The notes: generated from the letters alone by a model not told the origin. Shown: positions 8,556 to 64,000, numbered from the stretch's first letter. The stretch: DNA of 64,000 nt from a virus (IMGVR_UViG_3300045988_113306), one strand, 5' to 3'. Translations and numbers: made by a program.

Positions 8556-9041
8556 TTAAATTTGCGACGTTGGATAAAACTTGCCCCCGAAATTCCTGAA
8601 CTTGTATTTCACCACACGGTACTGCTGTTTACCGTGCAGTATCTCATCCGAAACCTCCGGGGCGTCTATAAGGCACAACTGCCAATAGCGGTCGGGACGG
8701 AAAGTGTCGTGGTATTCTATCTTTTGTGCGGTAACGTAGTCAAAGAACGCCTGTTCATCCTCCAATACGGCGTATTCCGCATTGGACTTCCACACAAGCG
8801 TCAAAGTAATGTCGGATGTGTCGTATGCTATGTCGTCAACTGAGGGAACCCACAAGTTGCTACCGCTTTTCTCGGCAAACTTCTCCTCGTACACATTCAT
8901 TGCCTTGGTTGGCTTGTTCCCCGAAAAGGACTTGTAATAGCAATTGAAATGCTCCTCCAAGTCTATGACAGGGAATGTGGTTGAGCCTTGGGGGTACTTA
9001 TGTATGTAGAAGCGGTATTTGGTGTGGTGTTTATAGCTCAT
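8556..9041 (-). CDS. hypothetical protein, 161 aa
   Basis: Track ORF. Confidence 0.55.
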   Translation of the reverse strand: MSYKHHTKYRFYIHKYPQGSTTFPVIDLEEHFNCYYKSFSGNKPTKAMNVYEEKFAEKSGSNLWVPSVDDIAYDTSDITLTLVWKSNAEYAVLEDEQAFFDYVTAQKIEYHDTFRPDRYWQLCLIDAPEVSDEILHGKQQYRVVKYKFRNFGGKFYPTSQI

Positions 9042-9528
9042 CTCTTATGATTTTCACGTTTGACTTGTCATAGTCGTAAATATCGGCATCTTCGCCGTAT
9101 ATGTAGACATTCGCCTTGCCGTCGCCCTTGATGTAGCATTTGCAGTTAACCAAGTGCATCTCGCATATACGATTCTTGGGAATGTATATAGTGCCGATAA
9201 AATCTATCGCTATCAATGCCGTCGTAGTGGCCCGTATCGCGGCAATGTCGTCCCCTTTGCCGTCCAAACAATACATCGCCGATGTGTAGCCGTCCATGTC
9301 GCGGACATACTTGCCGTTATTGAATGGAGCATACTCACGGCAGATATACTCGGCTGTAAGCCCCCATCCCTTGGCAATTGAACGGGCAACCCAAGGCATC
9401 CCGTTTGCGTCAAGACAGATGTCCATGAACGCCTTTTTAGACTTCGCCTTATCCACCTTGTCGGTGTATTCTTGGCAAAGCCCTAAGCGTTTCGCTTTGG
9501 CGATGAATTCTTCAAATGTCTTGTCCAT
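9031..9528 (-). CDS. hypothetical protein, 165 aa
   Basis: Track ORF. Confidence 0.55.
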   Translation of the reverse strand: MDKTFEEFIAKAKRLGLCQEYTDKVDKAKSKKAFMDICLDANGMPWVARSIAKGWGLTAEYICREYAPFNNGKYVRDMDGYTSAMYCLDGKGDDIAAIRATTTALIAIDFIGTIYIPKNRICEMHLVNCKCYIKGDGKANVYIYGEDADIYDYDKSNVKIIRDEL

Positions 9529-9590
9529 AGCGCAAAGATAATGATTTATTGCGGATTATCAAAAAATAAGCGTATATATTTGCCGTCAAT

Positions 9591-10040
9591 TCAACACTCT
9601 GCAAGTCGTTGCGCATTATCATCCCCGTATGCGATTAATACGCTCCCGCAGCCCGAAGTCCCGCCCTGACGCCCGCTTATGTCACAGAATTTTATTCTGC
9701 CACGCATTACTAACATGGCAGTTGCACTCGGAAATATAATGTCATGCCATAATGCCGTGTCCATGCGGTTGAACACTAACGCTATCCCGTTTTTATGCAC
9801 CGCCATCCGTTTCATGAATTGTCCGATTAGCGGATTCTTATACGGGGGATTCAACCATACTCTGCCATACCAAGGTTGCACCAATCCGTCAACATCTTTT
9901 GTGTAGCACGTGTCAGCAGTATAGAATTCCTCACATGGAGCACACGGGTCTAAGTCAAAATGGCCTAATTTAGCAATCAGCGTTTTAGGCGTGTACCATT
10001 CGTCAGTTCGGGAGATAGAACGTTCAAAGGATGTATTCAT
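9591..10040 (-). CDS. phage Dam-type N6-adenine DNA methyltransferase
   Basis: DEWYTP, FDLDPCA and VWLNPPY motifs in the order typical of small phage Dam-family MTases. Confidence 0.8.
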   Translation of the reverse strand: MNTSFERSISRTDEWYTPKTLIAKLGHFDLDPCAPCEEFYTADTCYTKDVDGLVQPWYGRVWLNPPYKNPLIGQFMKRMAVHKNGIALVFNRMDTALWHDIIFPSATAMLVMRGRIKFCDISGRQGGTSGCGSVLIAYGDDNAQRLAEC

Positions 10041-10051
10041 ATCGGTAGTGG

Positions 10052-12139
10052 TTAAAAAGGCACGATTTCGTCGGGGTCGGCTGGCGAGAACGGGTCGGTG
10101 GATAATTCGTAATTAGGCAAATCTACGAATGATTGTTGCTCCGCGTTCTCCTGCCAATTATAGTTAATGACTTCGTAAGGGTCGGATTTCAAACGGTTGG
10201 ATTCTATCTCAAACCACAGCTTTATAATCTTCCCCATAGCTGAACCTTTGTCACGCCACTTGGCAATCTCAATTATATTGGTACAACCACTTGAAGATAT
10301 GTCGTTTATTTTGTCCTTTGACAAAGCTCCCTGCGCTTGCATTTCAAAAGTGTCAGGATATATCCTATGAACAATAAGAACGTTTTGAGCATAGTTAGCG
10401 ATATTGCCACTGCCCGAAATACTATCGCAGTCTAACCATTGACGCTGTTTGTTGGGGTGCGCGACCAAATGAATGTGGCAATTCAATTCCCTCGCAAGGT
10501 TTGTCAATTTGTTTAGCAACTTCTTTTGATTCGACCATTCATCCCTTTCTCCCAAGTCGTCAAGTTCAATAGTCATGAGGTTGTCAAGCGCAAGTATTTG
10601 AAATGGCCATTCCTTATATAGCTGCCGTATCTTATCTTCAAGGTTAAGAATGTCGCCTTGATATACATTGTTGTATATCCGTAAATATTGGTCTATCCAC
10701 GGTTCAATCTTTTCAACGATAGGTGCGGGAGTAAAATAGAAATCGTTAAATCGTGACTTCTGATTAAACTGCTTTCCACTTAACTGAAGCATCATCCATT
10801 GCTTGGTTTCTCCCTCTGACAGCTCACGACTTATCAAAGCGCAACGTGCGCCACGGTTAGCCGCACCTAACAAGACTTGATTAAGAACCGTAGACTTTGC
10901 GCATCCACGCCTACCAGACCACACGGTAATTTGGCCCAACTTCTGCCCTATAACAATGTCATCCAACGTTTTTATCCCAAATGGGATATAATCATCCACA
11001 GACAATTCAACTTTCTTTATTTCAGACATCCTTTTCCACGGCTCGCCTTTTTCCGCAGTTACAGGTTCGGGCTCAAATGGTGGTCGTACACGGTAGTAAT
11101 TCTGCCTATGCACATACTCAGCATAAGTCGCTTTATCGTATGCAGAAGGGTCAAAATGAAGTCTAAAATCACGAAAAGTCAGATGCTTGTGCGATTGGTG
11201 CAGGCACACGAACTGATAGCCGCCGTTGCGGAAAGCGAACACGCAGCTATCGGGAGCTTTATGAGATGATTCAAAGGGACATTCCGCCAGCACGTATTTA
11301 GTGTAGTCGTTCGTCACGGTCTTTTTGGCGACCTTGATGTCGTATTTCTCCAAAAAAGCCTCCAAATCGAAACTATCGGAGCCCCGGTAATGGTTCTGCT
11401 TCGACGGCGTTTCGGGGGTGGGGATTAAGGATGCTATTTTTTGGATGTACACGATGTCCGTCGGCTTGACTTCCTCAGGTGCCCGGACAATGTACGCCAT
11501 TCTGTGGGGACGTTCTTTTGTATTCGCCCCTTTTCTATTGACAGAATAGTAAAGACGGCACAACCTCGCAGGGTTCCCTACGACGCCATCTATATGAACT
11601 CTTTCATCAGAGAATAGCATACCAAGAGCATCCAAAAAATCTTTTACGAGCTTACGGTTAACTTCGCTATTCTCCAGCTTGACACGGTACATGACATGGA
11701 TGCCAGAGCCGGAGCAGCACACCACAGGCTGCTCGAAGTTGGCGTCGCGCAAGTAGGCGTAGACCTCATTGGCTTTCTTTTTGGCGTATGAAAGTTCTTC
11801 ATCAGTGCTTGCTGTACCCGAAGTACGCTCAACATCAATATCGACCATTATCCAATCGTACCCGACAATATCCTTATCGGCTGTCGTTTCACGTGGTTTT
11901 ACGACAAACTTGTTGCTTTGCTGACGGCTAAAACAAGCGTCGTTTATACGGTTAAGGACAAAGTATTGATTGCAATGCTCATACGGCTTCAACGCTTCAA
12001 TGATTGCGTCAACATCCTTAAAGTAGCCAGAGTATGTCTTGCTTGTGGCGGGGTCTATAAGCCTTATCTCCACAAGATGCTGATTGTCCTTGAAAATGTC
12101 ATACCACCTTCTTAGACCTGATATTTGGTCGGAGGTCAT
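10052..12139 (-). CDS. bifunctional AEP primase-polymerase / SF4 (DnaB/RepA-like) helicase
   Basis: N-terminal AEP motifs DIDVE, SGSGIHV, HIDGV; C-terminal Walker A GRRGCAKST and ILALDNL Walker B; 695 aa. Confidence 0.75.
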   Translation of the reverse strand: MTSDQISGLRRWYDIFKDNQHLVEIRLIDPATSKTYSGYFKDVDAIIEALKPYEHCNQYFVLNRINDACFSRQQSNKFVVKPRETTADKDIVGYDWIMVDIDVERTSGTASTDEELSYAKKKANEVYAYLRDANFEQPVVCCSGSGIHVMYRVKLENSEVNRKLVKDFLDALGMLFSDERVHIDGVVGNPARLCRLYYSVNRKGANTKERPHRMAYIVRAPEEVKPTDIVYIQKIASLIPTPETPSKQNHYRGSDSFDLEAFLEKYDIKVAKKTVTNDYTKYVLAECPFESSHKAPDSCVFAFRNGGYQFVCLHQSHKHLTFRDFRLHFDPSAYDKATYAEYVHRQNYYRVRPPFEPEPVTAEKGEPWKRMSEIKKVELSVDDYIPFGIKTLDDIVIGQKLGQITVWSGRRGCAKSTVLNQVLLGAANRGARCALISRELSEGETKQWMMLQLSGKQFNQKSRFNDFYFTPAPIVEKIEPWIDQYLRIYNNVYQGDILNLEDKIRQLYKEWPFQILALDNLMTIELDDLGERDEWSNQKKLLNKLTNLARELNCHIHLVAHPNKQRQWLDCDSISGSGNIANYAQNVLIVHRIYPDTFEMQAQGALSKDKINDISSSGCTNIIEIAKWRDKGSAMGKIIKLWFEIESNRLKSDPYEVINYNWQENAEQQSFVDLPNYELSTDPFSPADPDEIVPF

Positions 12140-12145
12140 GGCTTA

Positions 12146-12153
12146 ACCTCCTT
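12146..12153 (-). promoter_or_regulatory. canonical Shine-Dalgarno AAGGAGGT, 6 nt before primase ATG
   Basis: Read on minus strand; unusual because almost no other gene here has an SD. Confidence 0.5.
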
Positions 12154-12186
12154 ATATCTGATAATGATAGTTTCGGTCATTATATA

Positions 12187-12243
12187 GCACTGTGTTATAT
12201 CGCACTGTGTTATGAAAAAGAGATTGGGAACGATGCACAGTGC
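12187..12243. promoter_or_regulatory. three copies of the 9-bp palindrome GCAC(A/T)GTGC (candidate operators)
   Basis: Copies at 12187, 12202 and 12235 in the primase leader. Confidence 0.5.
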
Positions 12244-12287
12244 CGACATCTACGAAACGGGAGCGACCCATCCGCTCCCAAATCTCT
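12214..12287 (-). promoter_or_regulatory. leader stem-loop with U-run (attenuator/terminator-like) upstream of primase gene
   Basis: AGAGATTTGGGA pairs with TCCCAATCTCT followed by TTTTT; competing local hairpin GGGAGCG/CGCTCCC shares the GGGA bases. Confidence 0.5.
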
Positions 12288-12290
12288 ACG

Positions 12291-12298
12291 CAAAACTA
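12291..12298 (-). promoter_or_regulatory. candidate -7 promoter box TAGTTTTG
   Basis: CAAAACTA on plus strand = TAnnTTTG on minus, just upstream of the leader structure. Confidence 0.4.
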
Positions 12299-12324
12299 AA
12301 CAATCTTTTTCACTTATGCAATAC

Positions 12325-13020
12325 CTACTGCCAATAATCCTCGTTACCATCGTCTTTTTTCACCAACACATCCTCTCCGCTCATAATCTTATCATAAAGA
12401 TACTTCTCGTTATCCCGGTTATGGTATGCGCCCTCGTAAACCTTTGTCGCGTTGGCCGCCGACTTTATCAGCCAATCGAATGTGCATCGCCAATCGGTGT
12501 TTGCGTTCCCGCAAAGAAAACTGCTTGACCCTACCAATTTGAAAATCTTATATAGGTCGCCTATGGTCAGCTCACCTTGATTCATGCAAGACTTGAGCTT
12601 ACGTTTGCGCTGTGGAGTCCATCGCGTAATTGGCGGCAATGTGGGACAACTCTCGGCCCATTTCTTAGATACATCGTCGTAGTCAATGGAACTTAAAGTT
12701 TCAGGTTTCTCGCCCTCGATTACTTTCGGTTGGTTGGTCGGCCGATACTCGGACTTGTACACAAGCGGGAGTATAAGTTTCTGTCCCTCGTCTATGTTGA
12801 CTTGGACGGCACCTTTGTCAAACAATGACCTTAGCGTAGCATCGCACTCTTTCTTTGTTATCTCCAATGCGGTAGCCAATGCGCCAGAGCGGACGTTCAC
12901 GCCCAATTCAGAGCGTGGGTAGCTGTCAATCTCTATAAGCACTACTTTTTCCAACCATGTCAGGTCTTGGTTTTCCCACAAGGACATGGGGATTGCAATG
13001 TATCGGTTTTCTCGTTTCAT
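12325..13020 (-). CDS. putative replication organiser-like protein (N-terminal wHTH-like, conserved phage C-terminus)
   Basis: 231 aa; C-terminal W..R...L....FL.G.....F.WL....KV.EG.Y pattern resembles phage replisome-organiser C-termini; sits upstream of the primase gene. Confidence 0.35.
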   Translation of the reverse strand: MKRENRYIAIPMSLWENQDLTWLEKVVLIEIDSYPRSELGVNVRSGALATALEITKKECDATLRSLFDKGAVQVNIDEGQKLILPLVYKSEYRPTNQPKVIEGEKPETLSSIDYDDVSKKWAESCPTLPPITRWTPQRKRKLKSCMNQGELTIGDLYKIFKLVGSSSFLCGNANTDWRCTFDWLIKSAANATKVYEGAYHNRDNEKYLYDKIMSGEDVLVKKDDGNEDYWQ

Positions 13021-24783: not shown

Positions 24784-24874
24784 AGCAAACAAAATCCCCG
24801 AATGGGGCCGTTACACACCCAAACGAGGCTTTAGAAGGTTAAACTTGCGGTAACGGACGCAAATATAGTCTTAG

Positions 24875-24947
24875 TGGCGGGAGCAGGAATCGAACCTGCG
24901 ACCTCTGAGTTATGAGCACAGCGAGCTTCCGACTGCTCCATCCCGCG
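24875..24947 (-). tRNA. tRNA with CAU anticodon (Met, or Ile2 if lysidine-modified)
   Basis: Hand-folded cloverleaf: 6 Watson-Crick acceptor pairs plus C1:C72 mismatch, U8, D arm GAGC/GCUC, anticodon loop CUCAUAA, T arm GCAGG-UUCGAUU-CCUGC. Confidence 0.8.
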
Positions 24948-48216: not shown

Positions 48217-48324
48217 CTTATAAATTCTAAGCCGACTGTCAGCGGCAATTCAAAAATTATTAGGATAATCCCTATCATTGCGACTGACAGCGCATGGTAG
48301 GGGTTGTCTGTTTTTATTGCAAGA

Positions 48325-48978
48325 ATGACAAGAGAAGAACGAAAGTGTTTCCTTCAATCACTTAACAACAAGCGTCGTGGCCAACCAAATATGAGCCAAC
48401 GTACAGGCGTTTGCGAGTGGGGAATAACCGATGTCAATATCCCCGTGTATTCAAATTCAAACAGCGCGAATATCCGTCCATATCGGGTGTGGCGCGGAAT
48501 GATTAATCGGTGTTATGATACTAAAACACAGAAGCGCAATCCAATGTATATTGGATGTGTTATAGATGAAAGATGGCGACATTTCTCTTCGTTCTTCGAG
48601 TGGTATAATCAAAACTATCAGGATGTATACGATTTAGATAAAGATATACTCATTAAAGGCAATAAAGTATATGGTCCCGATACTTGCTGCTTTGTGCCTC
48701 ACCTCATAAATTCTATATTTACCAAATCAAAATCAGCAAGAGGTTTATACCCAATTGGTGTTTGTAGACGCGGTAATAGGTATCAAGCAAGGATGCTAAT
48801 GTATGACAAATCCATAAATTTGGGGAGCTTTAGCACTCCCAGCGAAGCCTTTCAAGCCTACAAAACAGCGAAAGAAGCGTATATCAAGGAGGTCGCAACC
48901 TCTTACTACAACGAGGGCAAGATAACCGAAAAGGTCTATCGCGCTCTTATGAACTACCAAGTAGAAATAACCGATTAA
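48325..48978 (+). CDS. AP2-domain DNA-binding protein, 217 aa
   Basis: GVCRRGNRYQARMLMYDKSINLGSFSTPSEAFQAYKTAKEAY is an AP2-type fold signature; ATG at 48325. Confidence 0.5.
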   Translation: MTREERKCFLQSLNNKRRGQPNMSQRTGVCEWGITDVNIPVYSNSNSANIRPYRVWRGMINRCYDTKTQKRNPMYIGCVIDERWRHFSSFFEWYNQNYQDVYDLDKDILIKGNKVYGPDTCCFVPHLINSIFTKSKSARGLYPIGVCRRGNRYQARMLMYDKSINLGSFSTPSEAFQAYKTAKEAYIKEVATSYYNEGKITEKVYRALMNYQVEITD

Positions 48979-48991
48979 TAAATCATAAATT

Positions 48992-49732
48992 ATGGCAGAG
49001 CAAGATTTAGTATTAGCCCAACCCAACAGAGAGGTTGGCCTGAGCGTGTTTAAGGACTTAGAGAGCTTTGAACTCGCAACAAGAATGGCGAAATGCCTGA
49101 ATTCAAGCTCAATCGTCCCAGATACATACCGAGGCCCGCAAAACCTCGGCTCGTGTATGATTGCGCTGGATATGTCCGCAAGACTCGGTCTAAGCCCAAT
49201 CCAAGTGATGCAGTCACTTTACTTAGTGAAGGGAAAGCCCTCATTCTCAGGACAGTTCGTTATTGCCCTCGTTAACGCCAGCGGTTTGTACAAGACCAGA
49301 ATCCAATATGAGGAAGTCGGTAAAGCTGGCACCGACAACTACGGGCTTCGTGCATGGGCTATTGACCATGAAGGAAATAAAATATACGGCCCAGCTGTCA
49401 CTATAAAGATGGCTAAGGATGAGAATTGGTGGTCAACCAATAAGAAATGGCAGAATATGACGGAGCTTATGTTGCGTTATCGAAGTGGCACCCTGTTCCA
49501 GCGTACAAATTGCCCTGAACTCACATTTGGCGTGCCTACCACCGAGGAAGTTGAGGACATGGGCGTTAAAGTCGTTGACATCCCGGCCCACGAGGTTCAG
49601 GAAGTGGACATCGACAAAGTGCCTGAGAGCATCATCAAGGGCGACAACACCATCGAAGTGAAAGCCACATTGACGAGCGAACCGATAAAGGAAGAGCCCA
49701 AGAAACCCCAACCCGAAGAGCAAGACTTTTAA
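48992..49732 (+). CDS. recT: RecT-family single-strand annealing protein
   Basis: IVPDTYRG..NLGSCMIALDMSARLGLSPIQVMQSLYLVKGKPSFSGQFVIALVNASG follows the RecT pattern from memory; acidic C-terminus. Confidence 0.5.
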   Translation: MAEQDLVLAQPNREVGLSVFKDLESFELATRMAKCLNSSSIVPDTYRGPQNLGSCMIALDMSARLGLSPIQVMQSLYLVKGKPSFSGQFVIALVNASGLYKTRIQYEEVGKAGTDNYGLRAWAIDHEGNKIYGPAVTIKMAKDENWWSTNKKWQNMTELMLRYRSGTLFQRTNCPELTFGVPTTEEVEDMGVKVVDIPAHEVQEVDIDKVPESIIKGDNTIEVKATLTSEPIKEEPKKPQPEEQDF

Positions 49733-53115: not shown

Positions 53116-53147
53116 CTTGCGTGTTTCAAGGATTATTGCTATCTTTG
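53116..53147 (+). promoter_or_regulatory. candidate promoter (CTTG-N20-TATCTTTG)
   Basis: -7 box 53140-53147; 119-nt leader to ATG 53267. Confidence 0.5.
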
Positions 53148-53186
53148 TGATGCGAATTAGTATGAATCAGTTTTATGAAATAAAAA

Positions 53187-53262
53187 GTCCGAGAAAGTGT
53201 TGGGTAGCGGAAACGCCCCAAGGTTGCATACTAACCTCGCAGCACTTCGCTCGGATTTTTTT
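53187..53262 (+). promoter_or_regulatory. terminator-like structure in the leader of KilA-N copy 2
   Basis: TCCGAG..AAGTG pairs with CACTT..CTCGGA around two small inner hairpins, followed by TTTTTTT 5 nt before the ATG. Confidence 0.5.
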
Positions 53263-53266
53263 AACT

Positions 53267-54061
53267 ATGAATGAAATTCAAGTTTTTAATTACAACGGTA
53301 GCGGAATCGCGTTTAGCACCGACAAGTGTGTAATGGTGTCAGCTACCGCAATGGCGAAACCTTTTGGTAAATCCCCGACTGATTGGCTTAAAACTCGCAG
53401 TGCCAAACAGTTTGTCAAAGAATTGGGCGAGTTGAAGAATATCAACTCGGTTGATTTAGTGAAAGTTACATACGGTGACAACGGCGGCACATGGATGCAC
53501 GAAGATGTCGCGTTGGAGTTCGCACGTTGGTTGGCCCCCAAGTTTGCCATTTGGTGCAACGACCGAATAAAAGAATTGCTAACATATAGCAAAACTAATA
53601 TGCCCGCTATCCCGCAGACTTTCGCTGAAGCGTTGCAGCTCGCCGCCGACCAAGCCAAGCAGATTGAACAACAGCAAGCACTCCTATTGGCACAAGGCGA
53701 GGCAATAGCCGAAAAGGACAAGGCTATATCGGAACTGCACGAAAAGACTTCTTACCTTGATAAAATCCTGCAAAGCAAAGAAACTATCACCACGACTCAA
53801 ATAGCTCAAGACTATGGAATGTCGGCGAAGAAATTCAATGTTGAGCTTCGCAACATGAAGATTCAACGCAAAGTGGGCGGTCAGTGGATTCTTTACTCTC
53901 CCTACAACACTATGGGTTATGTCCATTCCGAAACTTTTATCCCAGAAAGCTCCACCACAAGGAAAGTTGTTACCCTTTCTAAATGGACTCAAAAAGGGAG
54001 GCTGTTTTTGTATGAGGAGATGAAGAAACGCGACATCCTGCCGTTGATTGAACGCAGATAG
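53267..54061 (+). CDS. KilA-N domain / antirepressor (KilAC-like C-terminus), copy 2
   Basis: FNYNGSGIAF...KSPTDWLKT...GTWMHEDVALEFARWLAPKFAIWCNDRIKELL; ATG at 53267 (MNEIQVF). Confidence 0.7.
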   Translation: MNEIQVFNYNGSGIAFSTDKCVMVSATAMAKPFGKSPTDWLKTRSAKQFVKELGELKNINSVDLVKVTYGDNGGTWMHEDVALEFARWLAPKFAIWCNDRIKELLTYSKTNMPAIPQTFAEALQLAADQAKQIEQQQALLLAQGEAIAEKDKAISELHEKTSYLDKILQSKETITTTQIAQDYGMSAKKFNVELRNMKIQRKVGGQWILYSPYNTMGYVHSETFIPESSTTRKVVTLSKWTQKGRLFLYEEMKKRDILPLIERR

Positions 54062-54182: not shown

Positions 54183-54254
54183 TGCCTCGTAGTATAACGG
54201 CTATTACATCAGTTTTTGGCACTGAATATGGTGTTTCGACTACACCCGAGGCAA
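54183..54254 (+). tRNA. tRNA-Gln (UUG)
   Basis: Hand fold: 7-bp acceptor with U1-A72, anticodon stem TCAGT/ACTGA, loop TTTTGGC, T arm GGTGT-TTCGACT-ACACC. Confidence 0.8.
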
Positions 54255-54353
54255 CTAAGGGATATGCAAGAGAGCAGTCCTGCGGCGTGAGGCGCTAATG
54301 ATACCATATTTATCTTATTTTTTCGCGGATGCAATGCAAGCACATCCGCACAT

Positions 54354-54424
54354 GGTTGAGTAGAAAAGTGGTAATTCAACGGTCTGCAAAACCGTCATCG
54401 GCGGTTCGATTCCGCCCTCAACCT
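54354..54424 (+). tRNA. tRNA-Cys (GCA)
   Basis: Hand fold: acceptor GGTTGAG/CTCAACC, anticodon stem ACGGT/ACCGT, loop CTGCAAA, T arm GGCGG-TTCGATT-CCGCC, discriminator U as in tRNA-Cys. Confidence 0.8.
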
Positions 54425-54442
54425 CTAATATTTTTGACTTCA

Positions 54443-54862
54443 ATGCCCGTAAGATTTAAAAGAAAGAAAGGGAACAAGTACAACGCATCCAAAGCGTCCG
54501 CCGACGGCATGGAGTTTGACTCCACCAAGGAACGTGACAGGTATTTGTTCCTTAAACAAGCCGAAAAAAACGGAATTATTTCCAATTTGGAGTTGCAGCC
54601 CAAATACATCATCTTGCCCGCTATCACCGACGAACGTGTGAAGCGCCTTAAAACAAAGGACAAAGTGGAATCATACACGGTTCAACAGCCGGTGAGATAC
54701 ACTGGTGATTTCCGTTATGTGAAAGATGGGCTAATCGTGGTGGAGGACGTGAAAGGCTCCAAGTTCACTATGAGCCGTGATTTGCCCTTGCGGGTAAAGA
54801 TGCTCCGCTATTTCCACGGCATACAAGTAAAGTTGGTGTTCAACCCTAATGAACCGATATGA
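54443..54862 (+). CDS. DUF1064-type PD-(D/E)xK nuclease-like protein, 139 aa
   Basis: GMEFDSTKERDRYLFL...YTGDFRYVKDGLIVVEDVKG fits the DUF1064 pattern from memory; ATG 54443 chosen because track start 54329 overlaps tRNA-Cys. Confidence 0.5.
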   Translation: MPVRFKRKKGNKYNASKASADGMEFDSTKERDRYLFLKQAEKNGIISNLELQPKYIILPAITDERVKRLKTKDKVESYTVQQPVRYTGDFRYVKDGLIVVEDVKGSKFTMSRDLPLRVKMLRYFHGIQVKLVFNPNEPI

Positions 54863-55084: not shown

Positions 55085-55426
55085 ATGGCAACGACAACAA
55101 CTGAAAAAGTAAAGTTCGGGACAGTGGAAAGCGCCACAGTTCCCGCCGACAACTCATTGGACTCATCTCGTGAATACAACATCCGTGAATCGGTTTCAAT
55201 CCGAGGCAACAGCGTTGAATCATTGAACAGCGGCATCGTGGAACCTCTAAGCGGAGGCAGCTCATTGGCGCTGTTCAATCAATACATGGGTTCGGGACTA
55301 AACATTACGTTCATGAACGACGTTGAAACTTCCGCTCAGTGCTCAATCCTAAACGCCGTCAACGAGCATATCAAGGCCGTCAAGGACAAGATTGCGTCGA
55401 ACGCAAGTCAGGCAATTAACGCATAA
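55085..55426 (+). CDS. hypothetical protein, 113 aa
   Basis: Track ORF. Confidence 0.55.
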   Translation: MATTTTEKVKFGTVESATVPADNSLDSSREYNIRESVSIRGNSVESLNSGIVEPLSGGSSLALFNQYMGSGLNITFMNDVETSAQCSILNAVNEHIKAVKDKIASNASQAINA

Positions 55427-55436
55427 AACCTCCCAA

Positions 55437-56033
55437 ATGACATACGATACGTTAGTTTTATCCAACAACCTGTTGTCCAACATACCCGTTGTGTTGGGGT
55501 CAAAGCAAATGGACAGCGACCTGTACACGACTATAACCCTTTTACAGGTTTCGTACCAAAGGGAGATAACCAAGTTGGACGAGTTCATGCAGGATGTTGT
55601 GAAAAAGCTCAAAAAGGAGGGATTCGACGACCGAGCCGCAAAGCAGAAGAAGCGTGAGGACATCGAGCGTCGCATCGCCGAGCATGATAATTGGCAGGAG
55701 GGACAAAAGGACGCCGAGGGCAACGAAATCCCGCGACCTGCAATGCCGAGTGACGAGGAAATCAACGATGCAAAAGAAATTGAGAAAGACAAGGATGCAT
55801 ACGACAAGGAACTTGACGAGCTCAATAAAGCCTACCAAAAGGCTTATATGGAGAAGATGGGACAGGAGGCTCCAAAGCTACCCAAGCTGTCACGCGACCA
55901 ATATGTCAACCTTGTTTCTTTCGTCGGACTCGCTGGCGACATCGAATACAAAGGAATTGGCATGGAAAAGCCGACAAAACTTGAAAGTCGACATTTCCTG
56001 ACCATGATTGCATTCAACGTTGTAGAATCTTAG
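55437..56033 (+). CDS. hypothetical protein, 198 aa, charged central region
   Basis: Track ORF 55392..56033 shortened to ATG 55437. Confidence 0.55.
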   Translation: MTYDTLVLSNNLLSNIPVVLGSKQMDSDLYTTITLLQVSYQREITKLDEFMQDVVKKLKKEGFDDRAAKQKKREDIERRIAEHDNWQEGQKDAEGNEIPRPAMPSDEEINDAKEIEKDKDAYDKELDELNKAYQKAYMEKMGQEAPKLPKLSRDQYVNLVSFVGLAGDIEYKGIGMEKPTKLESRHFLTMIAFNVVES

Positions 56034-56042
56034 CCTGCGTAT

Positions 56043-56327
56043 ATGATTCATGACATAATCTCAACTTTCTGCGTCGCACGAGGTGTTAGTGCGGACGATG
56101 TTACTCATGAATCTACTTTTAGGGACATCTGCATCACCAGATACATGATTTACGCCTATCTCCACAACAACATGAACGTGTCGGCATCCGACATCGGGAA
56201 AGTGTTCGGAAGGACGCGCATAAATGTCCTGCGGGGAATAAGGGTGTTGAAAGGGTGGATGCGATACCACACTGAAATCAAGGAAGAGTATCATTCCATA
56301 ATAAAAACGATTGAGGGAGCCGATTAA
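56043..56327 (+). CDS. second DnaA domain IV-like HTH protein, 94 aa
   Basis: VSADDVTHESTFRDICITRYMIYAYL...DIGKVFGRTRINVLRGI parallels 52112..52411 and the DnaA C-terminus. Confidence 0.5.
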   Translation: MIHDIISTFCVARGVSADDVTHESTFRDICITRYMIYAYLHNNMNVSASDIGKVFGRTRINVLRGIRVLKGWMRYHTEIKEEYHSIIKTIEGAD

Positions 56328-56342
56328 GCTCCCTCTTTTTTG
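56313..56342 (+). terminator. intrinsic terminator at the convergence with the tape-measure gene
   Basis: GAGGGAGC/GCTCCCTC stem followed by TTTTTTG. Confidence 0.75.
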
Positions 56343-56366
56343 TATATGGATGGGTAGAAAAAGGAA

Positions 56367-59300
56367 TCATCCAACTTTCACTATGTATGACCCAGCACCG
56401 CCGTTGCGGTTGACAATCACCCGGCCCAATTTTTCGTCAATGCTTGCCACGAGATTCCTTATGGCCTTTACCTCGGTGAGCATCGGATTGTCCTCACTTG
56501 TCCCGTATTGCGACTTTATGGCTTCAAGCATATTCGTGAGTATGTTGTTCTGCTCAAACACCGCGAAACGCATTGAATTGAGGTACGCTTCAATGGCTGC
56601 CGCCTGTGGCTCGGTAATGTTTTGTATGCCTTTTTGCAGGTCGGACAGCAACAACTCGCCTGTGCCGCCCTTGATTCCAAGAGCGTCAAAGAACGCCTTT
56701 AAGTCCTCATTCCAATCGCCAAGCTCGGATTTTAGGTTCTCGCCTATATTGGCGAACACCTGAGCCAATGGAAGCCCGGTCACACCGCTGTCAATGGCTG
56801 CGTTTATTTGGTCGATATATTTTGACATACGCTTTGAAACAACCGCTGAAGCTGCTTGCTTCATGACCAAATTCTTGAAGAAGTCATCCCAATGCTCTTG
56901 TAGCCCTGTCAATCCGTCGCCGGTTTCCTCGTATGCGTCCAACCATGCTGAAACAAAGTTCCCGGCTTCGTCCAAGTAGTCGGACTGTCCGATGGAACCC
57001 ATCTCTCGGTATCTGTCCTCCCTTATTTGCTTTTCGGTTTCATTGAGTTGTTCAAGCGCATCCTCGTATTCCTTGATTCTGTCCTTGTCGGCTTTTTTCT
57101 TGGACTTCTCCAATGCCAACTGTTCCTGAATGGCCTTGCGTTGCTCTTCCAAGTTGCGCATGGATTGGTCATAGGCCATGTTGTAATCGTCGTAAGTATA
57201 GGCTTCCTCGATTGCCTTTCCCAGCTTCTCATACGCTTTCTGTAGGTTTTCCACCTTATCCTGCAAACGCTGTATCTGACGTTCCTTCTTTTTGTCGCCG
57301 ATTTGGAATATGGAGCCTATCGTTCCTGCTAATCCTTTTACAGCCTGCATGTAGCCACCAATATCGGCTGGATTTACTATCGCTCTGCCGATACCCGAAG
57401 CCATGTCGCCCATTCCGTTAAGTATCTCTTGCACTGATGCAATCGTATCTGCCGTACCCGCTGACATATTGCCAAATACATTCTCCATTGAAGCCGCCAC
57501 ATCGCCTATCGTGGACGAAAGCTCTTTGGCATAGTTTACTATCGTCTGCAATGCCGTGCCGGTACCCTTAAATTGCGCTTTAAGCGTTTCTAAATGGGCA
57601 TTGCTCGTTGCAACTGAGGTTTCAAGCTCTGCAACTTGTTGGCCTTGCGCCTTGAGTATGCCTTTATGCAATGACAGCTCCATTTTTAAATTGTCTATCA
57701 GTTTGTCATGCTCGGCTTTCCCTTCCTTTGTCACATCTGTTCGTGCCTCTTCTATGCTAAGTTGGTCGGATAGCAGCGCAACTTGTTTTTGAGTATCTGC
57801 TTGCATACCCTTGGCGGCCCCAAGTTTGGCGGAGTTCTCAAGATAGTCCTTTTCTATACGTGAATACTCACGCATATTCTTTATTACATCGCCAATATTG
57901 TCCTTCAATGCTTTGAATGGATTGCGTTCAGCTTGCTCAGTTTCAAGTTTCTCCAATTGCTTGACAATTGCACGCACTTGGTCGGCCGGGAATTCTTTTA
58001 GCGATTCCTTTAGGCTTCGTAGCTTATTTAGCACATAGTTTATAGATTGAGTGGAAGCCCTTTCTACATCCTCAAACAAGGATATGTAAATGTCCGAGCC
58101 TTGAAAGTCTTTCCATGCTTGTTGACTCAGCTTTTTTCTCTCTTCATCCTTTGCACGAGTTATGGCCATTACCTTTGTTTCGTCGTCAAGAGTTCCATCT
58201 TGGCGTATCTTACTTATCTCCTGAGCCGTTTCCATTTCTATGCGCACTCTCTCCGACATGGCCTGAAGCATGTATTTGTTGTGGTTTTTCAACCTCTCTA
58301 CCGCTTCCTTGTTCTCCATGTCGGCTATCTTGCGCAAAGCGTCCTCATAGGTCTTGACCCTCTCTTCCTGACCGTTTGTGGCTTTTGTCACAGTCAGCTT
58401 GTCCTCCAAGTCTTTGCGTATCTCGCCCAATGTCATGGGCTTGCCGCCGACCAAGTAAGTCAAGTCGACATTCAATCCGAGATTGCCAAGCGTCTTTGTC
58501 AACTCGTAGTTGTCGAACGCTTTTTGTATGTCGTCTTTCGCCTGCTGTATCTGCTGCTCCTTGACCTTGATTTCAAGTTCGGCCTCCAATACGCCGACAG
58601 CTTCAAGTATCTTTTTCTTGGCTTTGCCCCCGGCTTTCTCCGCAAGAGCTTCAAGACGCTTAATGGTCGCCTCGGCGTCAAATGTCCCCCATGTGGATAT
58701 GTCGGCCCATTCCGTTTTCTTGAAAGCCTCAGCTACCGATGGTGCAAAAGATTCCAATACCTTTTTCTTGGCTTCCTCGGCACTGTAGTATTTCAGCAGC
58801 TTCTCATACTCCTTGTTTACTTTCTGCATGAGGTTCAGGCGGGGAGTCCAAATGTCCTGCTGACCGCTCTTTTTTTCCTTGTCCTCGTAGAAACCAAGAG
58901 CCCTTGAAAGTTTATCCCACCATTCAGCTTCCTTTTTAAGCTGTTCTTCAGTTGACCCGTTACCGAATTTACCTTCGGCTTCTGCCTGAGCTTCAGCGGC
59001 AGTTCTACCAAGAAGCATCAACTGTGTTCGAGATTCTTGTATTTTTCTAATATTGTCAGTGGCGGCTTCTGAAAGTTTATGAGCATCAGTGGCGGCGGAT
59101 GTATAGTTTGTATTTGCTGATATTTTTAATTTATCCAACATGGTTAATTGCATTCCATTGACTTTTGCGGAAGTTTTGGCGATGTCTATTATATCCATTT
59201 GCAAATCTCCCAACCCAATATTATGTAATTCTCGTGCGGTACGTCGTGCCCATGCTTGAATATTATTTCCATCGGTGGTTTCTTTTATGTTTTGTATAAA

Positions 59301-62300
59301 CCCGCCCAAAACACGTTGTTGGACATCATTAAACAATAATAGTGCATCAGTGTTGTTTTGAGTAGCATCCCTAATGCTGTCCCAACTGATTCTTGTTTCG
59401 TTTAACGACCCTAAATAATTATTTAGCGCTATCCTCGCAGCACCTAACTCTCGTATAGATTCTGCCCCTAAATCTGTTAGATGCCCACTTTCATCTTTCA
59501 AATTCCCGCTTTGAACAAGAGAAGCGTAGGTATTTAGGGTATCGTAAAAATCTTTTACCGCTTTTTTACGTACCTCATATTTTGCTATAATGGCTTTGGT
59601 TTGGAGCGAAAATCCCTCAGCAAATTGAGCGTCAAATTCTTGTTGTGATTCAACGCCCTTTTCATGAATATCTCTTATGTCATCATAAAAATCCGCATAA
59701 GTGCCTGTATATTCGCCAAAAAGGGCTCTAAAACCTCTTGTGTTAAAATTATCTTCCAAATCAAATCCGCTCGTTTGTTTAAATAATTCCTTAAAACGAA
59801 TCCAAGCATCATTCACATCTGTAGTGCCCTTATCAATTTCATCCTTCAATTCAAGCATGGACTTGCCAATAAGCCCCTTTAAAGTTCCAGTGGGTAAATC
59901 CTCCAATGATGGTTGTCCGCTTTTCAGATAAGCAGCCATATCTTTAGCGTGGCCTATCAAAGTATTCCATGCCTGCTCTTGGTCATTTTTTATCGCGTCT
60001 TCAGCCTTATTTTTTGCAGCTTCAGTATAATATTCCTTTATTGCGTTGGTAGCCTCATTGTAATTGTCAGATATTTTCTTTATGTTTTCTATTTCAAGCA
60101 TTTCTGACGGTAATATATCCTTATATATTCGATTCAAGGATTCCATCGCTTCATTTCGTTCTTTGTATGACTTGTTCCCATCTTTAATGGTATCTGCTAA
60201 TTCCTTAAAACGATAAATTGAGTCATACATATCAGTCATTGATTCTCCTGCAATGCGGTCAAGCTCTTCACTCAAAGCCGATGTGCTCGAAGTCAAATCC
60301 ACTATTGCTGAAATCGCTAATCCTAAACCCGCAATAATAGTTCCCCATCCTGTGAAATTCAATGACATAAGAGCTGCTTTAAGACCACCAGCTGCAATGA
60401 TGGTTTGCTTTATCGTAGTGAGATACGCTTTCATTCCAGCTATCAATGTTGAAGTCCATTTGCTTATGACTAATGATTTTGTTATGAGATAAAAACCGCC
60501 TAACACGCCACCCGCTGTCTTAATGCTCGTTGCAAGTATTCTCCAATTATTTATAAGCGCACGAATGGTAGTAAGTATAGCGGAAATCTCATCTTGATGA
60601 CTCTTGCCGATTTCATTGAACATGATGCTCATTGCATCCTGAATACGCTGCAACTGACCCCACAACGTTTCAGATTGCTTCTTCTGCATGTCGTAGAACA
60701 AACCGCCAGCGGATGTCACGCGCTTGAATACTTCCTCGACATCCTCAAAACGCACCATGCGCTTGGTAATCATGTCCATCACGTCGCCGACGGAAATCAT
60801 CTTGCCCTGAAGCTCCGAGAAGTAGTTCGCAAGCTCACCGGCGATGTTCAAACCCGCCTCGGTGAACTGACGGACTTCAGTATTGTGCGTTACGATATTA
60901 TCCTCAATTATGAAGCGATGGTTGCCGTCAATGGAGAATCCGTAATACGTGTCCTCTTTGTCAGCTTCCACAGTTATAAAGAATGGCTCATATTTGCCAG
61001 CTATACGGCGGACTCCTTGATAACGGTATATTAAGGGACTGTTGTAGACTTCGGTGACAAATACATCTGTCACGCAATCACACAATGCGTCATAAACCGT
61101 GAGTATGTGGTGTTCGTTGCATCGAAACTCACCGCCTTTGTATTTTACACGGTACATCATCTGCTCACCCTGATAGAGCTTGCTGACATGACGAGGCTGT
61201 TCGTCGTCACCCATAAGCACGTCGCCAACTACAACATCTTCCACATTCTTGAAAGTGCCGTCGAACAACTTAACGCGAGTACCCTTACCCAAACAAGCAC
61301 GGAGGTAGTTCGCTGCCTTGACCTGCCCGTAGGCGAGAATCAATCTCCCCATATCTACGCCAAGTCCAGCGGAAACATCCGCGAGCATCTTGGTCGTCCC
61401 CACGAGTTTCTCCGACTCGATACGGTACGCCGCCAACTGCTTAGTGTAGTTGGTTATCTGCATAATCGTGAACGGCGACTGCATGGCCAACTGTTGCACT
61501 TGCATGAATATTCTGTCCGCTTCGTCCTTGTTCTGCAAAATCGCCCTCAATGCGGTGCTCTGCAACTCGAACTGCGCCCTGACCTGTATCATTTTGTTTA
61601 TGTAGCCGGTTATCGCCGACACGGAGAAAGTCGCCGCCAATGTCCTCGCCAACTGACCCGATATGTCGCCCACACCCTTTGCTTGTCCCTTGAACTCGCC
61701 CATCTTCTTTTTGATTTCGTCGATGCGGGTGCGGGTCTTTTCAAGCGTGGCGTTCATCTGATTCCATTCCTTTGTGTCGGGCTTAGTGGTGGCCATGACC
61801 GCTTTTAGATTCTTGTAGGCTGCTTGTAGCTCGTTCAACGACTTGGCGTTCTTGGCATAGTTTATCGCACCCGCAGGGTCGGCTATCTTTTTTGCCATTT
61901 CGTTGCGTAATTTTCCTTGTGCTTTTGCAAGCTCTGATGCGTTGGTCTGCTGCTTGCGGTTCAGCTTGTCTATCTCTTGATAGATGTCCACATACCTGTT
62001 TTTCAGCTTTGTGAGCAAGTCAAGCTCATCGGCTGATTTCTGAGGCTTGTTTTGTAGCGCTGTGATTTCGCGCATAATCTGTGCTTGCTCCTTGTACAGC
62101 TTATTGTATTGGGTCGCAGTAGCTATTTTGGACGATTCAGCCTGTTGCGCCTGTTGGACGGTGCGTATGTCACGAGCCAATTGCGCCATCATCTGCGATA
62201 GGTTCTTTACATTGTCAATGGTCTGCTGAGAAGTGCTACCTATTTTCTCTATGCCGTTGGCTATGTTCGTGAACAATGAGGGGTCGGGATTGGCGGTCTG

Positions 62301-62648
62301 TAATTTCGCCATTGCATCGGCTATCCTGCCGAGTCTGTTAGACCCGGTCGTGGCCGACCTATCAATAACCCCCATTGATTTCGACAACTCCTGTATGGCT
62401 GCTGACAACCCAGTGGCGTCAATCGTCGGCATCTTTATGTCGCCCAGCTTGCTCTGCGCATCCTGAACTTTCTTTATGAAGGCGTTCACTCCGCTTACCA
62501 TCGTGTTATCAAAGTGTCCTTTCACCTTGGTCGCCGCGTGGCGCGAGGTCGCTTCAAGTGCCTTTATTGCCTTGTCGGCGTTCTCTATGTTATCAAGGAC
62601 TTCCTTCGGAATGTCCAATACTATGCCGGTTACGTTGTCGTTTCCCAT
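56367..62648 (-). CDS. tail tape measure protein (2093 aa) containing a mini-intein
   Basis: Long helical protein; conserved TMP core motif GQVKAANYLRA/TEVRQFTEAG is interrupted by a Hint domain; hydrophobic segment around aa 700-800. Confidence 0.75.
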   Translation of the reverse strand: MGNDNVTGIVLDIPKEVLDNIENADKAIKALEATSRHAATKVKGHFDNTMVSGVNAFIKKVQDAQSKLGDIKMPTIDATGLSAAIQELSKSMGVIDRSATTGSNRLGRIADAMAKLQTANPDPSLFTNIANGIEKIGSTSQQTIDNVKNLSQMMAQLARDIRTVQQAQQAESSKIATATQYNKLYKEQAQIMREITALQNKPQKSADELDLLTKLKNRYVDIYQEIDKLNRKQQTNASELAKAQGKLRNEMAKKIADPAGAINYAKNAKSLNELQAAYKNLKAVMATTKPDTKEWNQMNATLEKTRTRIDEIKKKMGEFKGQAKGVGDISGQLARTLAATFSVSAITGYINKMIQVRAQFELQSTALRAILQNKDEADRIFMQVQQLAMQSPFTIMQITNYTKQLAAYRIESEKLVGTTKMLADVSAGLGVDMGRLILAYGQVKAANYLRACLGKGTRVKLFDGTFKNVEDVVVGDVLMGDDEQPRHVSKLYQGEQMMYRVKYKGGEFRCNEHHILTVYDALCDCVTDVFVTEVYNSPLIYRYQGVRRIAGKYEPFFITVEADKEDTYYGFSIDGNHRFIIEDNIVTHNTEVRQFTEAGLNIAGELANYFSELQGKMISVGDVMDMITKRMVRFEDVEEVFKRVTSAGGLFYDMQKKQSETLWGQLQRIQDAMSIMFNEIGKSHQDEISAILTTIRALINNWRILATSIKTAGGVLGGFYLITKSLVISKWTSTLIAGMKAYLTTIKQTIIAAGGLKAALMSLNFTGWGTIIAGLGLAISAIVDLTSSTSALSEELDRIAGESMTDMYDSIYRFKELADTIKDGNKSYKERNEAMESLNRIYKDILPSEMLEIENIKKISDNYNEATNAIKEYYTEAAKNKAEDAIKNDQEQAWNTLIGHAKDMAAYLKSGQPSLEDLPTGTLKGLIGKSMLELKDEIDKGTTDVNDAWIRFKELFKQTSGFDLEDNFNTRGFRALFGEYTGTYADFYDDIRDIHEKGVESQQEFDAQFAEGFSLQTKAIIAKYEVRKKAVKDFYDTLNTYASLVQSGNLKDESGHLTDLGAESIRELGAARIALNNYLGSLNETRISWDSIRDATQNNTDALLLFNDVQQRVLGGFIQNIKETTDGNNIQAWARRTARELHNIGLGDLQMDIIDIAKTSAKVNGMQLTMLDKLKISANTNYTSAATDAHKLSEAATDNIRKIQESRTQLMLLGRTAAEAQAEAEGKFGNGSTEEQLKKEAEWWDKLSRALGFYEDKEKKSGQQDIWTPRLNLMQKVNKEYEKLLKYYSAEEAKKKVLESFAPSVAEAFKKTEWADISTWGTFDAEATIKRLEALAEKAGGKAKKKILEAVGVLEAELEIKVKEQQIQQAKDDIQKAFDNYELTKTLGNLGLNVDLTYLVGGKPMTLGEIRKDLEDKLTVTKATNGQEERVKTYEDALRKIADMENKEAVERLKNHNKYMLQAMSERVRIEMETAQEISKIRQDGTLDDETKVMAITRAKDEERKKLSQQAWKDFQGSDIYISLFEDVERASTQSINYVLNKLRSLKESLKEFPADQVRAIVKQLEKLETEQAERNPFKALKDNIGDVIKNMREYSRIEKDYLENSAKLGAAKGMQADTQKQVALLSDQLSIEEARTDVTKEGKAEHDKLIDNLKMELSLHKGILKAQGQQVAELETSVATSNAHLETLKAQFKGTGTALQTIVNYAKELSSTIGDVAASMENVFGNMSAGTADTIASVQEILNGMGDMASGIGRAIVNPADIGGYMQAVKGLAGTIGSIFQIGDKKKERQIQRLQDKVENLQKAYEKLGKAIEEAYTYDDYNMAYDQSMRNLEEQRKAIQEQLALEKSKKKADKDRIKEYEDALEQLNETEKQIREDRYREMGSIGQSDYLDEAGNFVSAWLDAYEETGDGLTGLQEHWDDFFKNLVMKQAASAVVSKRMSKYIDQINAAIDSGVTGLPLAQVFANIGENLKSELGDWNEDLKAFFDALGIKGGTGELLLSDLQKGIQNITEPQAAAIEAYLNSMRFAVFEQNNILTNMLEAIKSQYGTSEDNPMLTEVKAIRNLVASIDEKLGRVIVNRNGGAGSYIVKVG
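60882..61295 (-). other. mini-intein (138 aa, no homing-endonuclease domain) inside the tape measure gene
   Basis: Starts CLGKGTRVKLFDG (block A), ends YYGFSIDGNHRFIIEDNIVTHN with +1 Thr (blocks F/G); codons checked: TGT at 61295-61293, AAT at 60884-60882. Confidence 0.75.
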
Positions 62649-62661
62649 CGCTATGTGATTT

Positions 62662-63249
62662 TTACTTTAATTCGATATATTCGTTGTATGTTATCTTTGT
62701 GTGGGGATTGGATGAAACCACGGTCTGCTTTATGGCCTTGCAGCCCCACTTTATGAACCAAAACTTGTGCGGCACCTTATGCACGACCGTGGTCAATGTG
62801 TCACGTGAAATAATGTCCAAGTCCACGCTGTCGCGTTCCAAGACGCCTGTTATGTCCGTCCATGAATCCTGCCACGTGAACGCCTTGACGGGAACAATCA
62901 CGCTGTCACGGTAGACGACGGAATCACGCACTTGCGTCACCACCTTTACCTCGGTCTTAGTCCCGGTGGTCGAGGCCGACTGCATACGCCTCAGCTTTAT
63001 GTTCAACTCATCGGCGGTCTTCACCAATTGAGAGTTGGCGTTACGAAGCTCATTTACCGTGAGGCTTAATTTAAGCGCGTCTGCGGCGCTCTTCCCATGT
63101 TCGGTGGCCCAATACTCCACTTGCGACAATAAAGACGCCTGATTGGTCTTAAAACGCTCTTTCTCGCTGCGCTCCGATTGGACGGAATAGGCCAATGCGC
63201 AACACATGAGTATTAATACGGCGTTGGCGGTTAGAAGCGCTTTTTTCAT
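62662..63249 (-). CDS. membrane-anchored protein downstream of the endolysin (spanin-like position), 195 aa
   Basis: ATG at 63249 (MKKALLTANAVLILMCCALAYS) overlaps the endolysin stop; signal-anchor then coiled coil. Confidence 0.35.
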   Translation of the reverse strand: MKKALLTANAVLILMCCALAYSVQSERSEKERFKTNQASLLSQVEYWATEHGKSAADALKLSLTVNELRNANSQLVKTADELNIKLRRMQSASTTGTKTEVKVVTQVRDSVVYRDSVIVPVKAFTWQDSWTDITGVLERDSVDLDIISRDTLTTVVHKVPHKFWFIKWGCKAIKQTVVSSNPHTKITYNEYIELK

Positions 63250-63656
63250 AACTTTATTATTTGGCGTTTGAGATTGGACGGGTCGTAGCTGATATGTACC
63301 CACAATGGCCCAATTGCGTTTGTTTTTTCAGAAATTATTTGTGTGAATGGGAGATTGAGCTTGAGCACGAGGTCGAACAACTTCTTGTTGTCCGCACGCG
63401 AACCGACAGTCAGGTCGGCCGCCATGCCTTTAACGTGATGACTTGTGGGGCTTCCGCCCACAGCCCGATTCAGGGCGGGACAGCGATAACCGCTGTTGAC
63501 GGTGATAGGGCCGCCCCAAGCCTCCCTGAGAGGGTCAAGAACATTGTCGACCAAATCAACCAAGTGACATTCAATCTCGGCGGTGGGGACGTTCACTATC
63601 CTCTTCCGTGTCGCGGTGTCGCTCTTGCAAAGTTCTTTTATCGTAAAGTATTTCAT
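63246..63656 (-). CDS. peptidase M15 family endolysin
   Basis: SGYRCPALNRAVGGSPTSHHVKGMAADL; ATG at 63656 (MKYFTIKEL) preferred to track start 63848. Confidence 0.75.
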   Translation of the reverse strand: MKYFTIKELCKSDTATRKRIVNVPTAEIECHLVDLVDNVLDPLREAWGGPITVNSGYRCPALNRAVGGSPTSHHVKGMAADLTVGSRADNKKLFDLVLKLNLPFTQIISEKTNAIGPLWVHISYDPSNLKRQIIKL

Positions 63657-64000
63657 TCTTCGTTTTCTTTTTCGTCGTCGTTGAATATCGGCAGTCCGAG
63701 GTCGCTCATGAACTTCTCCGGGTCGTCGTAGCCCTTGCCTTCCTTTGGATGCTTGGCCCAATAAGCCTTTGCCTGCTTCTCCGAAAGATACTTGGTGTAC
63801 GTGCCGTCGCTTGCCATAATCCTTATCATCGGTACGCTGTACCTCCAAAAGTAGTCCTCAAAGGAAAAGGACGGGTACTGCTTTATGAAGTCCATCGCCT
63901 GACCGACAATGCTTTTTGCCCCGATGATTATTGTTCTTGAATCCTCCTCAGAGTCATCGTCCTCAATTCCGTCATCTGAGCCGTTATAGTAAAAAAAAAC
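63653..64000 (-). CDS. hypothetical protein, probably 5'-truncated by the window edge
   Basis: Track ORF 63653..63895; the frame stays open upstream to position 64000 (..YYNGSDDGIEDDDSEEDSRTIIIGAKSIVGQAMDF..). Confidence 0.4.
   Translation of the reverse strand, partial: VFFYYNGSDDGIEDDDSEEDSRTIIIGAKSIVGQAMDFIKQYPSFSFEDYFWRYSVPMIRIMASDGTYTKYLSEKQAKAYWAKHPKEGKGYDDPEKFMSDLGLPIFNDDEKENEE

Follow-up and report, generated by a model that had tools for sequence, protein, structure and literature searches.

The window analysed here, a 64,000-nucleotide (nt) stretch of viral DNA (IMGVR_UViG_3300045988_113306), carries on its minus strand the open reading frame (ORF) of a 2093-residue tape measure protein (TMP), the core of which is interrupted by a 138-residue insert that is very probably a functional class-1 mini-intein, with splicing predicted from its conserved residues and the known chemistry of inteins. 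Minus-strand translation of 60882–61295 gives exactly CLGKGTRVKLFDGTFKNVEDVVVGDVL...YYGFSIDGNHRFIIEDNIVTHN as residues 452–589, followed by Thr590, and reproduces the insert delimited in the initial annotation. A plus-strand reading of the same interval, for which the initial annotation gave no strand, was rejected, its translation being meaningless, and the feature sits on the minus strand. Removal of the insert joins ...YGQVKAANYLRA to TEVRQFTEAGLNIAG... and shortens the TMP from 2093 to 1955 residues.

Identity and fold of the insert

A Hint/intein profile search, which the initial annotation had proposed as a check, matched the isolated insert to the Pfam family PF05203 (Hom_end_hint) far beyond chance, with 68.6 bits (E 1e-18) where the curated threshold is 32.1; in the context of the full-length TMP it scores 47.5 bits. 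In the Protein Data Bank (PDB), phmmer ranks PI-SceI, known as the VMA1 intein, first with E 1e-12, followed by fungal Prp8 inteins (E 1e-11 to 1e-10), with PI-SceI aligning in two pieces, an N-terminal splicing region and a C-terminal DDYYG...VVVHN region. An AlphaFold2 model of the intein, for which 20 homologous inteins were used as input, has a mean pLDDT of 96.8 and a pTM of 0.89 and consists of one all-beta domain. It superposes on the 140-residue chains of Prp8 mini-inteins, and a Foldseek search of the PDB places the Cryptococcus Prp8 mini-inteins at the top (TM 0.89 and 0.88, root mean square deviation 2.0–2.6 Å, 30% identity), the best being 6mwy (TM 0.89, 2.0 Å), followed by PI-SceI domain I and the gp41-1, DnaB and DnaE inteins.

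The Prp8 mini-inteins of C. gattii and C. neoformans (PDB codes 6MWY and 6MX6) are thus the closest solved structures, and have in common with the TMP insert PF05203, a HINT domain only, Cys1 and a terminal His-Asn; they differ in having a eukaryotic spliceosomal protein as host and not a phage structural protein, and neither in insertion site nor in evolutionary context are they related to it. PI-SceI (Saccharomyces VMA1; PDB codes 1GPP, 1DFA, and 1VDE) is the best PDB sequence match, with both the block A–B and the block F–G regions aligned, but is 454 residues long and contains a LAGLIDADG endonuclease and a DNA-recognition region, whereas the TMP intein, at 138 residues, has neither. Pfam likewise detects no endonuclease family in the insert, and the model is a lone HINT domain. 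Since a 2025 preprint describes inteins with an endonuclease encoded in another frame, the overlapping plus-strand ORFs at 60594–61034 and 61107–61808 were screened as out-of-frame endonucleases and gave no family match. The initial claim that there is no room for a homing endonuclease is therefore upheld, as is the assignment of blocks A, F, and G with Cys1, terminal His-Asn and a +1 Thr, the catalytic residues being invariant in 35 homologous inteins.

By sequence the element has the features of class 1, namely Cys1, a block B N-x-x-H, the terminal His-Asn and the +1 Thr. For block B we take N60-E-H-H63, with Asn replacing the usual Thr as in PI-SceI. The WCT triplet of class 3 inteins is not present: Cys1 is there and is invariant, and block F reads Y-Y/F-G-F with no invariant Cys. 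A search with a profile of the TMP inteins found no second intein in the window. A compositional anomaly of the intein was considered and rejected, its G+C content of 0.45 lying near the 0.46 of the whole TMP gene. Block B Asn is directly preceded by Cys59 (61119–61121, minus strand) in the clade of TMP inteins to which the window belongs (FRCNEHH) and by Val in more distant alleles (YRVNENH); the other cysteines of the intein are Cys72 and Cys74.

The insertion site and the TMP-intein family

The identity of the host protein, and the effect of excision upon it, can be read from the TMP_3 domain (PF20155). The unspliced protein scores 23.0 bits against this profile in three fragments, the best of which aligns residues 352–451 with profile positions 2–108, while after splicing in silico the match becomes one unbroken stretch across positions 2–191 of 192 with 56.4 bits (cut-off 41). 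Domain searches and gene callers under-score intein-bearing TMPs (23 versus 56 bits). The profile TIGR01760 (tape_meas_TP901) scores 26.3, slightly under its cut-off of 28.8. Homologues found by tblastn are annotated TMPs of Bacteroides, Parabacteroides, Phocaeicola, and Riemerella phages, and matches to phage TMPs always come in two pieces that straddle residues about 329–723; matches of the TMP to SMC/Rad50 proteins are weak and coiled-coil-like.

With the spliced core as query, 127 homologues were retrieved. P0001, the nearest of them, is intein-free and 83% identical in the core, and crosses the site without an insert (...NYLRA/TEVRQF..., ...SANYLRATEVRQFTEAGLNIAGELA..., ...YGQVKSANYLRATEVRQFTEAGLNIAGELA...), as do 99 intein-free homologues in all, which read through the site as LR[AG]/[TSQAD]E.RQFTEAG. 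The junction produced by excision matches intein-free homologues exactly and TMP_3 is made contiguous, in agreement with the earlier proposal that removal of the insert restores the TMP core motif. The further statement that the insert lies in the most conserved motif holds in part: the site falls inside the most conserved block of the TMP, of ∼45 residues, but not at its peak, with a smoothed conservation of 0.81 at the junction (column 40 in rank of 217) and a maximum of 0.94 at LADVSAGLGVD, 24 residues upstream. The Lys-C peptide that would span the predicted splice junction is AANYLRATEVRQFTEAGLNIAGELANYFSELQGK; its tryptic counterpart, ATEVR, is very short.

An exhaustive HMMER search with the intein against 1.84 billion cluster representatives returned 6559 hits at E ≤ 1e-3. 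Among the best 150 representatives, which were examined (clusters at 50% identity), 32 are TMPs with a mini-intein of 132–146 residues at the same site, each flanked on both sides by homologous TMP core, and 29 of the 32 host proteins are 1883–3234 residues long. The closest TMP relative in this set is P0121 (2097 residues), the intein of which is 78% identical. Three of the 120 listed core homologues (P0072, P0076, and P0104) also carry a PF05203 intein at this position. When only the intein was used as query, a word-indexed protein search gave no match, as the relatives have no exact 5-mers in common with it. In P0072, the sequence after the intein runs into a Peptidase_M23 domain. In the intein-bearing locus L004 (7165–8718 / 8767–12861), the TMP ORF ends ∼50 residues past the intein and a 1364-residue ORF resumes 48 nt later; no Rfam intron lies at this break, which may reflect a frameshift or a real split of the gene.

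Pairwise identity among 35 TMP inteins ranges from 40 to 100%. Nevertheless C1, L2, G24, M47, Y48, N60, H63, L65, T66, D77, and D112 are invariant, as are Y117, G119, F120, D123, N125, R127, F128, T136, H137, and N138, and such invariance of the splicing residues despite divergence is the pattern expected under selection for splicing. The residue following the intein is equally constrained, being Thr or Ser in 35 of 35 intein-bearing alleles, whereas the corresponding position in the 99 intein-free alleles is occupied by Thr (49), Gln (26), Ser (20), Ala (3), or Asp (1), so that 30 of the 99 have neither Thr nor Ser. Fisher's exact test for Thr/Ser with and without the intein gives p = 3.5e-5, which is indicative only, the sequences being related. 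A +1 nucleophile needed solely where the intein is present argues for ligation and not mere cleavage.

The same position is also used by group I introns. In the core homologues P0098, P0103, and P0102, the ORFs diverge right after ...LRG, and on contigs with such split TMPs a second long ORF resumes 165–260 nt downstream. Full-length group I introns (Rfam RF00028, gathering score 50) were found there on two related metagenomic phage contigs, at 7261–7513 of contig L002 (87.9 bits) and 2559–2793 of contig L001 (81.8 bits). In L002, the 5′ exon closes with ...AGG GGT (Arg-Gly; U as its final base) and the intron with ...AAACG, while CAG GAA TTA CGA CAA TTT (QELRQF) opens exon 2, so that the intron occupies exactly the codon boundary of the intein, between GGT (Gly) and CAG (Gln). 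Exon 2 of L001 resumes with QEVRQFTEAG, its nucleotide-exact 3′ splice site being ambiguous. Both introns, at ∼235–253 nt, are too short to encode an endonuclease, and the TMP of each contig is reported by gene callers as two ORFs. Rfam detects no intron in the window or in the intein-bearing loci L004, L005, and L032.

TMP genes are often targeted by intron-borne homing endonucleases, in Vibrio phage ICP1 and others (PMC10448857). In ICP1 the TMP gene is likewise the landing site of a self-splicing element, there an RNA intron with an HNH endonuclease gene, while the element of the window is a protein intron without endonuclease and the introns of L001 and L002 are also endonuclease-free. Self-splicing elements repeatedly occupy the Ala/Gly-Thr codon boundary, which holds a mini-intein in certain phages and a group I intron in related ones, and this sharing singles the motif out as a hotspot of selfish elements. 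A more far-reaching proposal, which we regard as speculative and rather improbable, is that two unrelated self-splicing elements, both of which have lost their endonucleases, use this TMP_3-core boundary as a common homing site and may still spread among co-infecting Bacteroidota-type phages by means of a trans-acting, free-standing endonuclease or recombination. In the same proposal, the kinetics of splicing could serve as a checkpoint or timer of tail assembly, given that an unspliced globular domain cannot fit the tail tube, and Cys59 could in principle make splicing redox-sensitive.

Predicted splicing, alternatives, and distribution

In the proposed mechanism, the intein would be translated as part of the 2093-residue TMP precursor, from which the HINT domain would then remove itself. 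An N-S acyl shift at Cys452, helped by the block B Asn-x-x-His, would be followed by trans-esterification onto the hydroxyl of Thr590; cyclization of the terminal Asn589, with His588 assisting, would release the intein, and an O-N shift would leave a normal Ala451–Thr590 peptide bond in a 1955-residue TMP with an intact TMP_3 core. Without a homing endonuclease, the intein cannot home by itself, and it may persist because an indispensable, highly conserved motif tolerates only its precise deletion. By the rule known from lambda gpH, of about 1.5 Å of tail per TMP residue, 1955 residues would specify a tail of ∼290 nm. A folded HINT domain of 15.8 kDa in the core would hardly fit the lumen of the tube, and splicing should therefore precede tail polymerization.

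Several observations weigh against a functional mini-intein. Conserved catalytic residues do not by themselves ensure that an intein is active between its native exteins, block B carries Asn and not the usual Thr, and Thr is rarer as a +1 nucleophile than Cys or Ser. Moreover, all 32 TMP alleles examined are mini-inteins, with no endonuclease-bearing allele among them, and the distribution is patchy for an element that has no endonuclease.

One alternative is that the HINT domain is an autoprotease of the BIL or hedgehog kind, which cuts the TMP precursor in two as a maturation step, without ligation. Proteolytic processing is known for the TMPs of several phages, and Foldseek matches BIL and hedgehog HINT domains too, albeit more weakly (E 3e-7 to 3e-6) and ranked below the inteins. 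This reading is nonetheless very unlikely: the nearest relatives in both sequence and structure are true inteins; the +1 nucleophile, which is specific to ligation, is strictly kept with the intein and missing in 30 of 99 alleles without it; and TMP_3 runs unbroken across the site in intein-free homologues, such that two separated halves would be unprecedented. BIL and hedgehog-type domains are marked by the lack of a conserved +1 ligation nucleophile and by a location in variable, non-conserved proteins, and BIL domains are not known from sites such as that of the insert, which falls in a conserved block (smoothed conservation 0.81) of a protein that is itself conserved.

A second alternative, that a decayed and inactive intein is retained in the mature TMP as an extra globular domain, is supported by the loss of the endonuclease and by the view, discussed in a 2025 preprint, that mini-inteins are often late-stage relics. 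It is nonetheless very unlikely, given that the splicing residues are all invariant even between alleles with as little as 40% identity and that the model is a well packed, canonical HINT fold, and, from what is understood of TMP biology, a globular domain of ∼15 kDa in the core of a tail-lumen protein would be hard to square with tail assembly. An assembly chimera or chance resemblance, conceivable in that the window derives from a metagenome assembly, is effectively refuted by recurrence on independent contigs and clusters: the identical 2093-residue protein is present on five metagenomic contigs (the longest of 82.8 kb), at least 32 independent clusters have the same architecture, the insertion is in-frame with the G+C content of its gene (0.45 versus 0.46), and E-values range from 1e-18 to 1e-68.

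Pairwise identities of inteins and extein cores are correlated (Pearson r = 0.68), which fits largely vertical inheritance of the two together inside clades. Cores with the intein nevertheless interleave with intein-free ones up to 85% identical to them, and gains or precise losses must therefore have taken place. Outside TMPs, the nearest sequence relatives are helicase and terminase inteins at P-loop sites, in Salmonella phages of the Jerseyvirus (SETP3-like) group and in giant viruses, up to 57% identical in the N-terminal 67 residues; these differ in sitting after the Walker A GK of ATPases (...GRGK/C, ...ARGAGK/C), and many carry an endonuclease insert, recognizable from a match in two parts. 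Relatives in IMG/VR, many of them with 36–41% identity over the full intein length, mostly follow the Walker A Gly-Lys of ATPases, either terminase-like (...ARGAGK/C) or the helicases of giant viruses and phages (...PCGRGK/C), with TMP hosts at only 2 of the 80 loci kept. Of the relatives with DNA sequence available, the nearest, L005, is only 56% identical, too far for a dN/dS estimate. Within the IMG/VR loci L005–L084, one sample series accounts for a large set of near-identical terminase-like sites (WSSYLCARGAGK/C), and helicase sites of giant viruses (PCGRGK/C) are numerous.

Among 50,697 deposited phage records, tblastn found intein relatives in helicase, terminase, and P-loop hosts only and never in a TMP, and megablast of the region against GenBank phages gave no match. 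The lone full-length uncultured tblastn match, MT835760, was set aside, its host being terminase-like and not a TMP. Literature leads that pair “intein” with “tape measure” (phiCbK, CampHawk, Mooltan, and Shashou) proved to concern terminase, helicase, or ribonucleotide reductase inteins. A survey of actinobacteriophages lists TMP (IPR013491) among its new intein hosts, the preprint text giving no TMP insertion site (bioRxiv 10.1101/2025.01.02.630785); the kind of host protein is alike, but the lineage differs, Actinobacteria there and apparently Bacteroidota-type phages here. The initial description of a TMP as an uncommon intein host is thus true of the literature (one 2025 preprint) and of GenBank phages (none), but not of metagenomes, which hold at least 32 clusters at 50% identity.

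Neither inteins and mini-inteins nor the PF05203 lineage are new, and the TMP case leaves the concept of inteins unchanged; for the Bacteroidota-type TMP-intein family, its size, and the sharing of its site between intron and intein, no description was found in the literature. There are few records of inteins from structural proteins of virions (for TMPs, only one 2025 preprint was found, on actinobacteriophages), and here one TMP motif hosts a sizeable metagenomic family of naturally minimal inteins of 132–146 residues. Tail assembly in such phages would presumably depend on post-translational splicing, and small natural mini-inteins with a +1 Thr may interest protein engineers.

Feature coordinates and gene neighbourhood

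Table 1. Positions of the TMP gene, its predicted intein, and the splicing blocks in the window
Feature	Position	Strand	Evidence
TMP precursor gene (2093 residues plus stop)	56367..62648	-	ORF list and translation; tblastn to annotated phage TMPs; identical protein on five contigs
N-extein, residues 1–451, ends ...YGQVKAANYLRA	61296..62648	-	Alignable as far as the junction to the N-terminal cores of 32 TMPs with the intein and of intein-free homologues
Predicted class-1 mini-intein, 138 residues, 452–589	60882..61295	-	PF05203, PDB matches, AlphaFold2, Foldseek
C-extein, residues 590–2093 plus stop, starts TEVRQFTEAGLNIAG	56367..60881	-	Translation
TMP_3 (PF20155) domain; the intein divides it near profile position 108 (of 192)	60606..61595	-	Pfam, unspliced versus spliced in silico
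Block A (CLGKGTRVKLFDG) with Cys1 nucleophile	61257..61295	-	C1 and L2 invariant in 35 TMP inteins
Putative block B (EFRCNEHHILTV), Asn60-x-x-His63	61095..61130	-	N60, H63, L65, and T66 invariant
Block F (DTYYGFSIDGNHRFII)	60906..60953	-	Y117, G119, F120, D123, N125, R127, and F128 invariant; aligns to DDYYGITLSDDSDHQFLL of PI-SceI
Block G (DNIVTHN) and +1 Thr590	60879..60902	-	T136, H137, and N138 invariant; +1 Thr or Ser in 35/35 intein-bearing alleles

The TMP gene lies in an atypical neighbourhood. Directly upstream (62662–63848, minus strand) are Peptidase_M15_3 (endolysin-like) and DUF6549, with the window ending 1.3 kb upstream of the TMP gene, and downstream (55349–56366) only a 158-residue ORF with no family match precedes genes of the opposite strand. 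Neither a pair of tail assembly chaperones nor any distal tail gene is recognizable in the window. A free-standing HNH endonuclease gene (48304–48978, plus strand; phrog_953, 6e-72) lies directly upstream of a gene for a RecT-like annealing protein (48992–49732); a link between the HNH gene, ∼8 kb from the TMP gene, and mobility of the intein is only conceivable and is not supported.

A c4-2 antisense RNA (53184–53261, plus strand; Rfam RF02944, 61 bits versus 41) is located at the 5′ end of an ORF for an Ant anti-repressor (53117–54061, plus strand; phrog_63, 4e-36), whose listed TTG start probably over-extends across the c4-2 RNA gene, and together they look like a c4/ant immunity module in the style of P1/P7. 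The window also carries phage tRNAs for Met-CAT (24874–24947, minus strand), Gln-TTG (54183–54255, plus strand), and Cys-GCA (54354–54425, plus strand). The Holliday junction resolvase-like ORF listed at 54329–54862 runs at its 5′ end into the tRNA-Cys gene, and the true start of this ORF must lie further downstream.

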